DNA of 64,000 nt from Candidatus Micrarchaeota archaeon (GCA_040754495.1 JBFMCO010000022.1:1-64000), one strand, 5' to 3'; counted from the first letter of the stretch, positions 1-54,890 are shown. Translations and numbers: made by a program. Notes: a model not told the origin generated them from the letters alone.

Positions 1-53
1 CTCAGCAAGCGGGCGCTCTTTCGGAGTGAAGTACACCCCTTCCCGTGTCCTCT

Positions 54-410
54 TTAGCGATTTCCATAATTCACACCTCCATTTTTTCTCAGGTAGCTCC
101 CGTTGCGGGAGTATGCGCATGAATCTGCATCCTGCGGTGCTTTCGCCAGGCGGATAAGGATTTGGCCGCTGCCATCATCGCTCGCGCTGAGCAGTATTCT
201 TCCGTTCGTTTCAATGCCGATGGCTTCCCGGATTTCCAAAGGTAAGACTAGCCGCCCCTTCCTGTCGAGGCGTATGAAGAAAATCCTTCTCCGTGACACG
301 AGGTTTGGCTCCTGAGCCAGCCCTCCGTGCTTCCGACGGGTCCCCTCCCGAGGCAGACCTCGTGAAGGAGACCCCTTCCCGATTTCACCATTGGCTCCAC
401 CATTTGTCAC
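54..410 (-). CDS. AbrB/MazE/SpoVT-family DNA-binding protein
   Basis: IRLDRKGRLVLPLEIREAIGI matches the swapped-hairpin AbrB pattern; real start may be the GTG at 299. Confidence 0.7.
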   Translation of the reverse strand: MTNGGANGEIGKGSPSRGLPREGTRRKHGGLAQEPNLVSRRRIFFIRLDRKGRLVLPLEIREAIGIETNGRILLSASDDGSGQILIRLAKAPQDADSCAYSRNGSYLRKNGGVNYGNR

Positions 411-529
411 AGTAATTGGAAATTTCCCACTATTTAATTGTTTGTAACAGGGCGCTCGCTACGCCGGCGGCTCGGGGCGTTTGGGGGACGAAACAGGTGT
501 TTTTATATCGTTCGTGGTAGATTAGAGTC

Positions 530-1159
530 ATGGGTGGGAGAAAGGCGCGCATAGCCGCGGCAGCGGTGCTATTTGGCACCATCATGCCAGCGATGCTGCC
601 GATGCAGGAGTCCGGGGCGGCGTATGCCCAGGCCAGGCGCAGGGATGATATCTCCGGGTGGGTGAGGGAGAGCGCATCGTCGGCCCTGAGGGACAAGGAC
701 GAGAATGTCAGGGTGGATGCCGCCTGGAGGCTCAGGTACGGGGTAGAGGACGGGGCGGACATTTCGCCTGCGGTGGCCGCGCTGGCGGATGCTCTCTCCG
801 ACTCGAACCAGAACGTGAGGGGATATTCTGCCTTCGCGCTCGCCATGCAGCACCTGAAGAGGAAGGAATGGCCCAAGGCCGCCGCACTGCTCGAGCACAA
901 GGACGACGAGGTCCGGGCGAACGCTGGGTGGGCCGTAGGCGCAGCCGCGGAGAAAAAATACGCCCTCGCGCCTTTCGTCCAGACTCTCGAGAAGTCCCTC
1001 TCGAACGGGAACGAGTACGTGGAATGGAACGCGGGAAAGGCTCTCGCGCTGCACTATCTTGGCAAGGGGCAGAAGAGGAAGGCGGAGGAGCTCCTGCAGA
1101 AGGACGACGAGGATGTGCGGCAGGGCGCCGAGGAGGCCTTCAGGCTGTTTCGCAAGTGA
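530..1159 (+). CDS. HEAT-repeat protein with N-terminal hydrophobic/signal segment
   Basis: Repeated L-x-D-x-(D/N)-x-x-VR-x-x-A units (LRDKDENVRVDAA, LSDSNQNVRGYSA, LEHKDDEVRANAG, LQKDDEDVRQGA). Confidence 0.75.
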   Translation: MGGRKARIAAAAVLFGTIMPAMLPMQESGAAYAQARRRDDISGWVRESASSALRDKDENVRVDAAWRLRYGVEDGADISPAVAALADALSDSNQNVRGYSAFALAMQHLKRKEWPKAAALLEHKDDEVRANAGWAVGAAAEKKYALAPFVQTLEKSLSNGNEYVEWNAGKALALHYLGKGQKRKAEELLQKDDEDVRQGAEEAFRLFRK

Positions 1160-50009: not shown

Positions 50010-53000
50010 TCACAGGAAATCGGACAGCCCCATCTGCTTGACCTTGTCGTCCTCGAATATGCTCTTTATCTCCCGCTCGACAAGCACCAGCCTCTGCTTC
50101 AGGTAGGAGGGAAGGTCGTAGCGGTCGCATATGTCGCGGGATATCTCCAGGTATTTCTCGATTCCGCCCTTGTTGATTGTGAGGAGGAGGTTGCCCCCGC
50201 AGCGCGCGCACTTGCCCGCCAAGGGCACCCTGCGGAAGATGGTGTTGCACGAGACGCAGCGGAAGGTCTGCCTTGAGAAGGAGCGCAGGTTGCCGTAGAG
50301 GTCCGGGATGAAATGGCTCAGTATCAGGCGCTCGGCTGCATCGCGCCTATCAACCGGGCGGAGGCGGCCCTGGAGCCTGAACTGTATGTCTATCTTGTCC
50401 GGTATGGACTGCAGCTCCACGTAAGCCGTCCGTATGTTCCCGACATCAAGCGTGCCGCCCGGATGCGTGATGGGAAGCTCGTACTGCTCGTCGGTCCCCA
50501 GGACGTCCTTCACGGTCTTGAGCTTCACCTCGCCCGGCGGCGCGAAGCGCTCCGCGGCCTCGTAGAACTCGAGGGGGTAGCGCGAGACGATTTCGATGCA
50601 GTGCGCCTCGTCGTCCACCTCCTTGGGGTTTATCTCTATGGAGAGCACGAGGGGCGCGTCCATGGTGCCCCCGCGCTTCTCGTCGAGGAACCTGCGGGAG
50701 AAGTTGATGAGGGCGTCCATCAGGAGCATCACGCAGTCCTCGTCGCCGTCGCACCGAATCGTAAAGACCTGGTTGTTCAGAAGAACATTCTTTTCTTCCA
50801 GGGATTGGCCTTCCACATCGAGGCAGTATGCCGGAACTCCGTCTGTGAATTTCTCAATCGACCTGACCTTATCGAAAATATAGTCGCTTTGAGGCACGAC
50901 CGTGAACAGCTTATTCTGGTATTTGATAAATCGCGCATCGCTCGACAGACCGTTTCTTCTCAGTTCGGACATTCGTTCTGCCTTATGCTTCACAGAGGGC
51001 GCGCAGATATTTGCAAAGGCATATAGGTCGGTGCCATAAAGACTAATGAATCTCTGCGAAAGCAAACGCGGGGTTTTTCCGAGCTCTTTATACCTTTCAA
51101 GGACCTTTTTGCCAGGCAAACGCGGTTTGGTTTTGCCATACCTGCAGAAGATTCCAAATCGCAAAAGCAGCGTGCCGAAATCCTCCAAAAGATTTTGTGA
51201 AACGGAGTAGAAGTGCATTCTCGGGGGGGTGGCGATTACACTTCCATCTCCGTCAAAATAAGCAGAAATAAAGGATTTGACAAGACGGTCAGGCAGTGAA
51301 AAGACGAGATTTGGAACCCGTTTCGTGTAGGCATTTGAGCCGGTCTTCAAGACTTTATCAAACAGAAGGTGGATTATCCGGCTGCACATTGTTATCTGAG
51401 TGCCGTTCTCGCCAAGATAAGGGTTCGTCATAAAAACGCTTTTGATGGCGGCAATAAGCCGGTTCTGCATTATTTTATTGCAAACCCTGAAGCTGACCTG
51501 ATAACACGAAGGGCTTCTCCGTGCATACCCCTCTGAGACGAAGTAGCCGAGAATGAGCATCAGGTCCTCATCTATTGGAATTCTTACCGGCAGCCCCAGG
51601 TTATCTCTCTTCATGGCAATTTTTGCATCCATGGGCAAATCCTCAAAATTGCACACCCCCTCTTCCACAAGGATTTCGAAATGGGAGAGTGGAACGCGTC
51701 CATACCACCTGCTCGGAGTCCGTCTCTCGATTTTGTTGAGCGGCAGGATTCTGAGCAGCAAATCGCGATGATTATAGAATATTTTCTTGAAAAAATCCTT
51801 CGAGCGAAGTATTATCGCTTCTTTTTCTTCCTTTTTTAGTGGAGATAGGGCCTTTGCAAGATTGAGCACGCGGGAGTCGTCTATCGTGTGCGGATTGAAT
51901 TTTATGCAAACTGGCAGATCGGAGCCTTCAGTCATATCTTTTGCCTGAACTGCGCTAAGCGCCCCTTTGTTGAGGCAAAGAATATTATGGTCGGGAGTCA
52001 CGGTAATCTCCCGGTGGGTGGTTGTCGTAAGCTTAATCCATTTATCGGGAGCCTTTGCTCTGATGAAGCATTTGATTTTTTTACGGATTGTTTTGTGGGA
52101 TTGGAGGTCTATTCCGAATGAGTAAAGAGTTCCGGGAACTTCCACTTTTTCTGTATAAGCATCAAGCCGCTTGACCCTGTCGGGGTATTTGGCAAACATT
52201 TCTTCGGTAACATCGCCCAGTGCCCTTTTGATATATTTTTTCTCGTGCTCATCAAATATGATAATCTCGGTTGCCGGATGGAAGCAGTTCCTTCTCTTCG
52301 CCGTGTGGAAATACGGGTGGCCGTAGCCGACGTTGGCCTTGTTGAAGCCCACGATGCGGCACAGGACGCCGGCGCTCGTGTGCGGCGAGAGCCCGACTGC
52401 CAGGTGGCCTATCAGGTCGTCCTTCGACTTCACGTTGTAGAAGGGCTTCATGCCGTAGAGGTTGATTAGCATGTCGTCGATGAAATCCGCCACACGCATG
52501 AAGTACGCGGCGCCGTTCTCGGAGAGGACGATGTCCTGGTGCCGCAGCGCCAGCGTCTGGGAGCCGCTCTCGAGGGGCTTGCCAAGATAATCCACGGCAT
52601 AACCGAGCGCCCTGGCCCTATCGAGGCTTATGCCCACCTCGTCCGGCGTGAAATGCGTGAGCGGGATGTCTGTCGCGTCGAAGCGGGAGGTGCCGTCCCT
52701 GAAAACGTAGACGTCGTGCTTTGCGCGGAGGAAGCCCTTCTCCAGCCGCTCCGGGATGCGGATGGTGTTCGAGAGGCCCTTCACCCCCTTCACGTCTTCC
52801 GGGGAGCTCCCCACCCGGTCCTTCACGCGCTCGAAGAGCTCCATTATGTCTACGGGCCTGCGGTCGTAGGAGAGCGTCTTCATCTCGCAGTGGATTTCGT
52901 ACTCGCAGATGCGGCCGCACTTCTGGCATATCCGCTCCTCGGCGGCCCTGCCGCCGCAGACGTCGCAGCGCCGGTAATAGCCGAGGCGGCGGCATTTTTC

Positions 53001-54890
53001 GCATCGCAGCCTGGCGAGCTCCAGGTTGATCGTCTTCTCGCCCTCGGCACCCCTGAGGGCACGGTGGACCTTGCTCAGGCTCCGGTTCTTGAACGAGCCG
53101 GTCGGGAAGAGGACGTGCGGCGAGCCGTCCATCTTCCTTTCCTTTGCCTTCTCCGGCCTGCCCATGCGCGCTCCTATATAAGTAGGAGCCTTGGCCTTGA
53201 TGCGTATCTGGGAGGCCGCGTTCACGATTTCGAGCGCGCCCTTTGCGGCATCGTATGCCGCTTCGAAGCGGGAGAGGTCTATGCGGCCATCCGAAAGCGC
53301 CCCCAGCGAAGAGAGGAGCGCGTACGCGTCGTCGCCGTCAAGGATGACATTCCCGTCGTGCACCCTGTGCTCCGCGAGGAGCTCCTCCAGGGCCCTTTTC
53401 GCAGGCGATGGCGGAAGGACGAGCGAGCGGAGCCTGCCATCGTGCATCTCCAGCTTCCCGCCCTTGAGCCAGTCCGCCAGGGATTTGAGCTGGTCCGGCG
53501 ACAGGTCGTGCCAGTGGAATGTGTAGCGCGGATGTAGAGGCACGCCATGCGTCCGCGAGAATGCAAAAAGCCCCGGCGCGTCCATGGCGGCAGGAGGCTG
53601 GACTCCCTTGGATTCGAGCTCGCGCTCCCACCACTCTTCGCAGTAGCCGGATGGCATGAGGGGGTGGTTGGACTTGTGGAAATCGCCGTACGTGCAGAGC
53701 AGGTCGCCCAGGAAAAGGATTTCTTCCACCTCGTCCTTGATGCCGTACGACTCCTCCAGCGTCCGCACCTTCATCACGCGCCCGCTTTTGAGCTTCACGA
53801 CCGGCGGCTCGAGCCCCTCGTGCGCCGCGACCACGCAGCCCTTCCCGGGGCGCTCTATCTTCATGTGAGTCCCGTAGGCCAGGAAGTTGTCGAGCAGTAT
53901 CATCGTGGCAGGATGGACGTCCTTGCCCATGAGGCAGGTGGTCTTGCTCCTGCCGTAGCGCAACCGGAACCCGCCCTTGGCCGAAGGGTGGCTGAAGACC
54001 GGCCTCCCCGCTACAAGCCCTTCCATGTAGGTCCAGTCCGGCTTCACCTCGACCTTGTCCGCCTTTTTCTTTATCTTGATGATTTTCTCGAGCCAGTCCC
54101 AGCCCAGCTTGAGCTTCTTGGCGTATTTGAGGAGCTTGGCGGCCTTCGCTGCCACGCCCTCGCACATGACGAGGGGCACGCCGCCGCGCACGCGGTCCGT
54201 CTCCACTCCCGGCACCCCGCGGTAGGTCGAGACCTCGATTTCCTCGGTCGGGTCGCCGTCTATGCAGACCGGGCAGTTGGATGCTATCACGCGCACGTCG
54301 TCCTCCGGCGGCATGTACTGGAGGTGGGTTACGCGCGTCTCGTATGTCGTTACCTCCTCGTAGTATCTTGCAATCTGGGAGTCCGTGGCGCGGTAGTCCC
54401 CCACGCTGCATACGCGGCGCGCGATGTCGGCAAGCACCAGGCTGAGGGCGGCCGCAGTGCCTCCTGCGCTCCGGATGGGGCCCGCATAATAGACCGCCAC
54501 GTAGTCGCTCCCGTCCGGGTTGCGCTTTATCCTCACTTTCGCTATGCCCTCGGTCGGGGCGACCAGGACGCCCTCGGTGAGTATGCCGAGGCCCGTCCTC
54601 ACCGCCTGTTCGATGAGAAGCTCCTTGGACGCCTTCATCAGCTCGCCGCCGGCGATTTTGCGTGCGATTTCGAACGCGATGTCCTCGCGGCCCATGCCAC
54701 CTTTTTCCATGTCCCGGATGAGATCTGCCACTCCGGGGGGGCCGACGATACCCTCCACGCGGGCGGCGATGTCCTTGGCTATCTTGACTTCTATGTCGTC
54801 GCTCGGGTCATAGCCGAGCCTCCTTGCCTCTGAGGCGACGGCGTATGCCTTCTGCAGCCCCTCGCGGAGCGTCTCCACATACTCTCCCAT
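50010..54890 (-). CDS. polC: DNA polymerase D large subunit DP2, intein-containing
   Basis: YYAGPIRSAGGT, GGFRLRYGR, IGARMGRPEKAKERKM, KRRN|CDGDED, RGGTMDAPL, HFIPDLYGNLR. Confidence 0.97.
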   Translation of the reverse strand: MGEYVETLREGLQKAYAVASEARRLGYDPSDDIEVKIAKDIAARVEGIVGPPGVADLIRDMEKGGMGREDIAFEIARKIAGGELMKASKELLIEQAVRTGLGILTEGVLVAPTEGIAKVRIKRNPDGSDYVAVYYAGPIRSAGGTAAALSLVLADIARRVCSVGDYRATDSQIARYYEEVTTYETRVTHLQYMPPEDDVRVIASNCPVCIDGDPTEEIEVSTYRGVPGVETDRVRGGVPLVMCEGVAAKAAKLLKYAKKLKLGWDWLEKIIKIKKKADKVEVKPDWTYMEGLVAGRPVFSHPSAKGGFRLRYGRSKTTCLMGKDVHPATMILLDNFLAYGTHMKIERPGKGCVVAAHEGLEPPVVKLKSGRVMKVRTLEESYGIKDEVEEILFLGDLLCTYGDFHKSNHPLMPSGYCEEWWERELESKGVQPPAAMDAPGLFAFSRTHGVPLHPRYTFHWHDLSPDQLKSLADWLKGGKLEMHDGRLRSLVLPPSPAKRALEELLAEHRVHDGNVILDGDDAYALLSSLGALSDGRIDLSRFEAAYDAAKGALEIVNAASQIRIKAKAPTYIGARMGRPEKAKERKMDGSPHVLFPTGSFKNRSLSKVHRALRGAEGEKTINLELARLRCEKCRRLGYYRRCDVCGGRAAEERICQKCGRICEYEIHCEMKTLSYDRRPVDIMELFERVKDRVGSSPEDVKGVKGLSNTIRIPERLEKGFLRAKHDVYVFRDGTSRFDATDIPLTHFTPDEVGISLDRARALGYAVDYLGKPLESGSQTLALRHQDIVLSENGAAYFMRVADFIDDMLINLYGMKPFYNVKSKDDLIGHLAVGLSPHTSAGVLCRIVGFNKANVGYGHPYFHTAKRRNCFHPATEIIIFDEHEKKYIKRALGDVTEEMFAKYPDRVKRLDAYTEKVEVPGTLYSFGIDLQSHKTIRKKIKCFIRAKAPDKWIKLTTTTHREITVTPDHNILCLNKGALSAVQAKDMTEGSDLPVCIKFNPHTIDDSRVLNLAKALSPLKKEEKEAIILRSKDFFKKIFYNHRDLLLRILPLNKIERRTPSRWYGRVPLSHFEILVEEGVCNFEDLPMDAKIAMKRDNLGLPVRIPIDEDLMLILGYFVSEGYARRSPSCYQVSFRVCNKIMQNRLIAAIKSVFMTNPYLGENGTQITMCSRIIHLLFDKVLKTGSNAYTKRVPNLVFSLPDRLVKSFISAYFDGDGSVIATPPRMHFYSVSQNLLEDFGTLLLRFGIFCRYGKTKPRLPGKKVLERYKELGKTPRLLSQRFISLYGTDLYAFANICAPSVKHKAERMSELRRNGLSSDARFIKYQNKLFTVVPQSDYIFDKVRSIEKFTDGVPAYCLDVEGQSLEEKNVLLNNQVFTIRCDGDEDCVMLLMDALINFSRRFLDEKRGGTMDAPLVLSIEINPKEVDDEAHCIEIVSRYPLEFYEAAERFAPPGEVKLKTVKDVLGTDEQYELPITHPGGTLDVGNIRTAYVELQSIPDKIDIQFRLQGRLRPVDRRDAAERLILSHFIPDLYGNLRSFSRQTFRCVSCNTIFRRVPLAGKCARCGGNLLLTINKGGIEKYLEISRDICDRYDLPSYLKQRLVLVEREIKSIFEDDKVKQMGLSDFL
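50754..52286 (-). mobile_element. 511-aa LAGLIDADG intein in DP2
   Basis: Inserted between KRRN and CDGDED; starts CFHP; blocks LGYFVSEG and ISAYFDGDG; AT-rich; ends NNQVFTIR. Confidence 0.92.

Follow-up and report, generated by a model that had tools for sequence, protein, structure and literature searches.

A clade of arginine-ending inteins in archaeal DNA polymerase D and a probable new route for the third step of protein splicing

The DP2 gene and its intein

Examining a window of 64,000 nucleotides from Candidatus Micrarchaeota archaeon (GCA_040754495.1 JBFMCO010000022.1:1-64000; the window denotes this whole stretch, and all features described below lie on its minus strand), we found that the gene for the large subunit (DP2) of DNA polymerase D (PolD) carries an intein whose last residue is arginine, where inteins finish by cyclization of an Asn or Gln, a background statement of the first-pass annotation of this DNA that holds. 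The intein-bearing DP2 gene (50010..54890) is a stop-free open reading frame (ORF) whose translation runs to 1626 aa, and its product possesses the Pfam domains PolC_DP2_N, PolC_DP2_central and PolC_DP2_cat (E 1e-104 to 1e-119), although an insert matching Intein_splicing and LAGLIDADG_3 splits the PolC_DP2_cat profile at position ~179. Only one DP2 locus was found in the organism's own genome (1.63 Mb, 80% complete). The insert is in frame within a conserved protein that is continuous in 27 of 39 genomes of the genus, the others carrying Arg- or Gln-type inteins.

The layout of the gene follows from its translation and its Pfam matches. The N-extein (aa 1-868; 52287..54890) ends in ...YFHTAKRRN, in agreement with intein-free alleles of the genus, and is followed by the 511-aa intein (50754..52286) and by a C-extein that, including the stop codon, spans 50010..50753 and opens with the catalytic loop CDGDED (50736-50753). 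This loop of DP2, with its two catalytic aspartates, is a known intein site (PMC4996933), such that the earlier placement of the insertion in the PolD catalytic region is borne out. Within the intein, a Hint splicing domain (PF14890, Intein_splicing, 44.3 bits; cut-off 35.8) encloses a nested LAGLIDADG endonuclease (PF14528), and the AlphaFold2 model of the whole element is of high quality (predicted local distance difference test, pLDDT, 91.2; predicted template modeling score, pTM, 0.90). By motif and homology the nested domain (50877..51884, limits approximate) appears to be a LAGLIDADG homing endonuclease, as it matches LAGLIDADG_3 (E 1.7e-12), is a homologue of PI-PkoII (PDB 2CW7), and possesses both motif acids, E252 (GYFVSEG) and D347 (YFDGDG), which are retained in 50/60 and 52/60 full-length members of the clade described below.

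The residues expected to act in splicing can be placed on the same translation. Cys1 (TGC, 52284..52286), the nucleophile of step 1, is Cys in all 145 DP2 inteins sampled, and block B reads T97-P-D-H100 (51987..51998), with Thr97 and His100 invariant among 64 Arg-ending inteins. Toward the C-terminal end lie block F, Y487-C488-L-D490 (50817..50828; Tyr and Cys invariant in those 64, position 490 D in 55 and E in 9), and Lys499 (50790..50792), which takes the place of the block F His of Asn/Gln-ending relatives and is basic in every Arg-ending intein (K 60, R 4). The intein closes with Ile510, where canonical inteins have His, and Arg511 (CGG, 50754..50756), the latter being Arg in 64/64 of the clade. 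Directly after it stands Cys+1 (TGC, 50751..50753), the first residue of the C-extein and the nucleophile of step 2, which is Cys in all 120 intein-bearing homologues.

Junctions and register

We assessed the register from both alleles and structure models. The splice junctions read ...FHTAKRRN|CFHPATEI... and ...NNQVFTIR|CDGDEDCVML, and they are fixed independently by the genus's own DP2 alleles that lack an intein, in which the sequence is KRRN-CDGDED or KRRN-ADGDED. On the junctions, the CGG codon at 50754-50756, the penultimate Ile and the length of 511 aa, the first-pass annotation was correct in every detail.

An alternative register would place the true end at Asn505 (..NVLLNN|QVFTIR), an end of the canonical ..hhHN type that would leave QVFTIR in the polymerase. 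Relatives reading ..VLWHN|QLIQIR do mimic block G at this point, the cyclizable residues Asn (54) and Glu (10) occupy position 505, and HMMER places the canonical ..VLHN|TISIAK ends of other inteins on this same stretch. Set against these likenesses, the +1 residue would become Gln or Gly, neither of which is a nucleophile, the spliced polymerase would gain six catalytic-loop residues relative to intein-free alleles, and Asn/Gln-ending relatives likewise have, in column 505, the Asn/Asp/Gly of their final beta-turn. We rejected this shifted register and consider it very improbable.

The structure models point the same way. A mini-intein relative modeled with AlphaFold2 (pLDDT 91.0) adopts the Hint fold (Foldseek E 6e-13; VIA Z 22-24 to solved inteins), and its span from Cys1 to Arg maps to residue 1 through the last residue of Mtu RecA (1..440), PI-PfuI (1..454), PI-PkoII (1..537) and Pab PolII (1..185), the set as a whole lying at Z 17-24. 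The IFCI of the mini-intein model forms the last Hint strand, with the Arg aligned to the last residue of the solved inteins, and the model of the window intein has the same final strand. The arginine is thus predicted by these models to take the position that the terminal Asn or Gln occupies in solved structures.

Terminal arginine is a conserved and selected property of a DP2 intein clade

Searching with the intein region for other Arg-ending DP2 inteins, as the first-pass annotation had suggested, we found 120 DP2 proteins with a homologous intein at the site, ending in Arg (60), Gln (35) or Asn (25). A tree was then built for 145 inteins, including loci from 401 genomes of the same phylum, with the terminal column removed beforehand. 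On this tree the 64 Arg-ending inteins form one side of a single branch (one change, SH-like (Shimodaira-Hasegawa-like) support 94) with no reversal, whereas Asn and Gln swap for each other elsewhere in 11-12 changes. The Arg-ending inteins appear to be a deep, DP2-specific clade in which the last residue is always Arg. Arg-ending inteins in hosts other than DP2 were absent among the best 150 matches to a mini-intein profile (1.84 billion representative proteins), where the 12 scorable Arg-ending inteins were all in DP2 and the inteins of other hosts end in His-Asn.

Within the phylum the codons of the terminal Arg include CGG, CGT, CGA and AGG, and a pattern scan of metagenomes yielded 36 distinct DNA contexts in which all six Arg codons are used (CGA 14, AGA 9, CGT 5, CGC 3, CGG 3, AGG 2). 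Recoding or editing of one particular Arg codon is ruled out, as all six are in use. In six close pairs of Arg-clade inteins the ratio of nonsynonymous to synonymous substitution rates (dN/dS) is 0.07-0.22, from which we conclude that the clade is under purifying selection, and in one pair with 99% amino acid identity the terminal codon is CGA in one member and AGA in the other. Taken together, the use of six codons, the CGA/AGA pair and the low dN/dS indicate that selection acts on Arg as an amino acid.

These data bear directly on a reading in which the terminal Arg reflects a sequencing or assembly error, a DP2 pseudogene in decay, or a Gln-ending intein hit by a one-off mutation. What speaks for it is that CGG lies one transition from CAG, which the first-pass annotation had pointed out in proposing a sequencing error or lethal-looking variant; this is true but irrelevant, and the clade also uses AGA and AGG, which lie two steps from CAG. 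With Arg invariant in 64 independent sequences from many assemblies, through six codons and under purifying selection, and with an intact ORF over 1626 aa and strong DP2 domain scores, the comparative data refute this reading, and we assign it a negligible probability.

Mobility and distribution

Several features of the intein suggest that it has not resided in this gene for long. Its GC content of 45-48% contrasts with 63-65% in both exteins, and the change is abrupt at each junction. Across the genus the same DP2 site is found empty, occupied by a full-length Arg-ending intein (three genomes), occupied by an Arg-ending mini-intein (one genome), or occupied by a Gln-ending intein of ~466 aa (five genomes). 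The low GC, the patchy occurrence in the genus and the intact endonuclease motifs therefore argue for a recent arrival, and the DP2 intein looks like a recently acquired mobile element. Mini-inteins of the clade (175-193 aa) have lost the endonuclease and kept the Arg end. By source name, hosts of the Arg clade comprise Micrarchaeota, Nanoarchaeota, MSBL1 and one metagenome-assembled genome (MAG) labeled Thermoplasmatales; the nearest relatives of the window intein are from groundwater Micrarchaeota MAGs, and a contig scan with the intein alignment returned 7 loci, all from Micrarchaeota MAGs.

Three side observations concern the insertion site itself. Alleles that read KRRN-A-DGDED could not support splicing and may be 'immunized' against invasion by the intein. 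Among public sequencing runs, one DNA run, a groundwater metagenome (share of words 0.04), and no RNA run contained any of this stretch. A 165-nt contig from it, ending at 50750, represents an intein-free Ala+1 allele of a relative that is identical to the window at 79/80 positions on the C-extein side (50671-50750), with 4/9 codons differing on the N-extein side, all synonymously; this pattern could be due to chance, or it could mark where recombination or co-conversion stopped at the intein site. Finally, altered loops follow some Arg-ending inteins (CDGEQD, CDGDQD and CDSDED, in P0127, P0050 and P0121), and catalytic residues may be altered or missing in these copies of DP2.

Evidence that the intein splices

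Turning to the residues of the first two splicing steps, Cys1, Thr97, His100, Tyr487 and Cys488 are all invariant in the Arg clade. At the place of Cys+1, the first residue of the C-extein, 9 of the genus's 25 intein-free alleles carry Ala, and among exact-pattern intein-free alleles in the phylum sample (n=76 genomes) Ala+1 occurs in 27 and Cys+1 in 49; the phylum sample includes one unpublished genome (G029), which enters the phylum tallies only and on which no claim rests. Because intein-free alleles carry Ala there, PolD itself can, on allelic evidence, do without Cys+1. That Cys+1 is nonetheless kept in every intein-bearing homologue therefore speaks against a stuck insert, which would not need it.

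We interpret the Arg-ending PolD intein as most likely splicing. This interpretation draws on the invariance of the step-1 and step-2 residues, on the retention of Cys+1 although PolD tolerates Ala, on the apparently recent arrival of the intein, on the mini-inteins, which would survive only if harmless and still end in Arg, and on DP2 being single-copy, with its DP1 partner found in three Arg-intein genomes of the genus. The host would also be expected to need splicing, because the gene is single-copy and the site adjoins the catalytic Asp residues.

The contrary reading is that the insert never splices, with PolD either working around a 511-aa insert or cut at the N-junction only and operating as two chains. 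Arg cannot perform the known third step (PMC4031507), both of the His residues that commonly help that step are gone, and the genome holds a PolB gene (C32:60176-61450), all of which speak for such a reading. It fares less well with the insert immediately preceding the catalytic Asp residues and with the constant Cys+1, needed only for transfer of the N-extein; it would also leave the invariance of Arg through six codons without a reason, and a fresh invader would be expected to be purged had it left so bulky an insert in the active site. We consider an insert that never splices unlikely. Among the three interpretations that the first-pass annotation had offered, a novel splicing mechanism is thus the one that conservation supports best, while a polymerase tolerating a stuck insert is improbable on the grounds just given and the error option fell with the comparative data above.

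A further possibility is that only steps 1 and 2 are autocatalytic and that an Arg-specific protease of the host cuts the Arg-Cys bond of the branched intermediate, freeing the amine of Cys+1. An invariant Arg before the scissile bond does resemble a protease recognition residue, and outside help of this kind would account for the loss of the intein's own step-3 helpers. The spread of hosts over Micrarchaeota, Nanoarchaeota, MSBL1 and the Thermoplasmatales-labeled MAG counts against it, as a mobile-looking clade tied to one protease would spread poorly; moreover, the last strand is predicted to be buried in the Hint fold, and no candidate protease was identified. We regard dependence on a host protease as quite doubtful.

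Weighing these readings, we think it probable that the window holds a genuine, recently acquired, mobile and working intein in the catalytic loop, one whose third step proceeds by new chemistry. We also lean, if a little less firmly, toward seeing the Arg-ending PolD inteins as a new mechanistic class in which the C-terminal junction is resolved without cyclization of Asn, Gln, Asp or Glu, a resolution that could run through an Arg delta-lactam, a conserved nucleophile of the intein, or catalyzed hydrolysis.

A proposed third step

In known inteins the terminal cyclizing residue is Asn or, more rarely, Gln, Asp or Glu, with assistance from the penultimate His and the block F His (PMC4031507); a distance of 4.1 A separates the block F His of the Pab PolII intein from its terminal Gln (PMC8175363). 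The Arg clade has neither of these common though not obligatory helpers (G:6 and F:13, respectively): the penultimate residue is Ile, Val, Phe, Ala or Leu and never His (n=64), and the block F His place is basic in 64/64. With both helpers gone and Lys or Arg at the block F place, the canonical step-3 apparatus therefore appears to have been replaced. Position 490 is always acidic and Cys488 invariant, and the basic and acidic residues at 499 and 490 could help step 3.

We propose the following sequence of events. Step 1 would be an N-S acyl shift at Cys1, aided by Thr97 and His100 of block B, and step 2 would transfer the N-extein to Cys+1. In step 3, the Arg511-Cys512 peptide bond would be broken by a route other than Asn/Gln/Asp/Glu cyclization, and a final S-N shift of canonical type would form step 4. 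Judged by their residues, steps 1, 2 and 4 look canonical. For step 3, our favored guess is that N-epsilon of the Arg attacks the residue's own backbone carbonyl to give a six-membered delta-lactam, which would be the ring-size analogue of the glutarimide made by Gln; we put this forward tentatively, as a chemistry that is itself rather unlikely to be the right one. Direct hydrolysis, or attack by a conserved side chain of the intein such as Cys488, would be close alternatives.

Several considerations weigh against these proposals. As a nucleophile, a guanidinium group performs very poorly at physiological pH; we know of no Arg-driven cleavage of a peptide bond in proteins; and delta-lactam formation from Arg is, to our knowledge, confined to activated Arg in peptide synthesis. 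The sister clade, whose members end in Asn or Gln, likewise has Cys488 and an acidic residue at 490, and these two features are hence not Arg-specific. On the side of the host, PolD is assumed to be essential here from its role in other archaea, PolB being present, and a search of the organism's own 80%-complete genome did not recover the DP1 small subunit (PF04042). The analysis shows the clade, its selection, its fold, its register and the retained residues of steps 1 and 2; the case that these make for splicing is comparative throughout.

For a direct readout, tryptic marker peptides can be specified: NCDGDEDCVMLLMDALINFSR marks the spliced form, and CDGDEDCVMLLMDALINFSR marks the precursor or a cleaved C-extein. 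The genome also provides an internal control in three other inteins (C36:296-1291, C28:51479-52969 and C45:31930-33360), hosted by a SufB-like protein, a helicase and an AAA ATPase, all of which end in His-Asn followed by Ser or Cys.

Implications

In textbook accounts, the third step of protein splicing consists in cyclization of the last intein residue, and the class to which inteins are assigned is that of the asparagine peptide lyases. An Arg-ending clade that is large, selected and mobile and sits in the active site of a replicative polymerase would mean either a new bond-breaking route or a polymerase that operates in an unexpected form. If the former is true, protein splicing would gain a further self-cleavage chemistry through the new class, one that could conceivably serve protein engineering with inteins, a field in which the limiting tool is control over C-terminal cleavage. 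Since natural mini-inteins are only 175-193 aa, both readings are testable with a small construct.

Comparison with known inteins

A description of Arg-ending inteins was not found in the literature searched, where most subscription journals lay outside coverage. We compared the window intein to the systems nearest to it. Among inteins that have been studied, those in PolII (DP2) from Pyrococcus abyssi and P. horikoshii (PDB 2LCJ, 5BKH, 7OEC) come closest, and they share the host protein, the site (KRRN|C...|CDGDED), the Hint fold (Z 17-23) and both Cys1 and Cys+1. They too depart from the canonical end, with a Gln and a slow third step (PMC8175363, PMC4031507), and, as the first-pass annotation correctly stated, the site is known to host DP2 inteins that end in Gln (PMC8175363, PDB 2LCJ). 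The two differ in that the Pyrococcus Gln can form a glutarimide and has the block F His close by (PMC8175363), whereas the window intein has an Arg end, Lys at the block F place and Ile in the penultimate position, and carries a LAGLIDADG endonuclease. Likeness in sequence is weak (E 0.038 to 2LCJ).

The Asn/Gln-ending DP2 inteins of Asgard archaea form the sister clade in our tree and are full-length homologues at the same site with 30-35% identity. The block F YC motif and the LAGLIDADG domain are common to them and the Arg clade, from which they differ in switching freely between Asn and Gln at the end, where the Arg clade never switches, and in having mostly His or Asn at the block F place.

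Among characterized mechanisms, class 1 inteins with a terminal Gln, Asp or Glu likewise depart from Asn while keeping the Cys/Ser nucleophiles and the four steps, one atypical-end example being the CIV RNR intein (Amitai et al. 2004, as described in PMC4031507). The side chains of Gln, Asp and Glu are, unlike that of Arg, of a carbonyl type able to cyclize onto the backbone. Class 3 inteins, defined by the WCT motif and a block F Cys nucleophile, share with the window intein a Cys at block F position 4 (Cys488). They lack a Cys1/Ser1 nucleophile and have Trp at B:12, Thr at G:5 and an Asn end, whereas here Cys1 is invariant, Ile stands two residues after the block B His, and G:5 is variable; a class 3 mechanism was rejected, as Cys1 is invariant and the F:4 Cys is the only part of the WCT motif present. 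The clade has the class 1 features of Cys at 1 and +1 and of Thr...His in block B (64/64), and it departs from class 1 in the terminal Arg, which in the window and in 64/64 of the clade takes the place of Asn, Gln, Asp or Glu. The window element thus appears to be a class 1 intein in all but its cyclizable terminal residue, with the two helper His residues missing as well.

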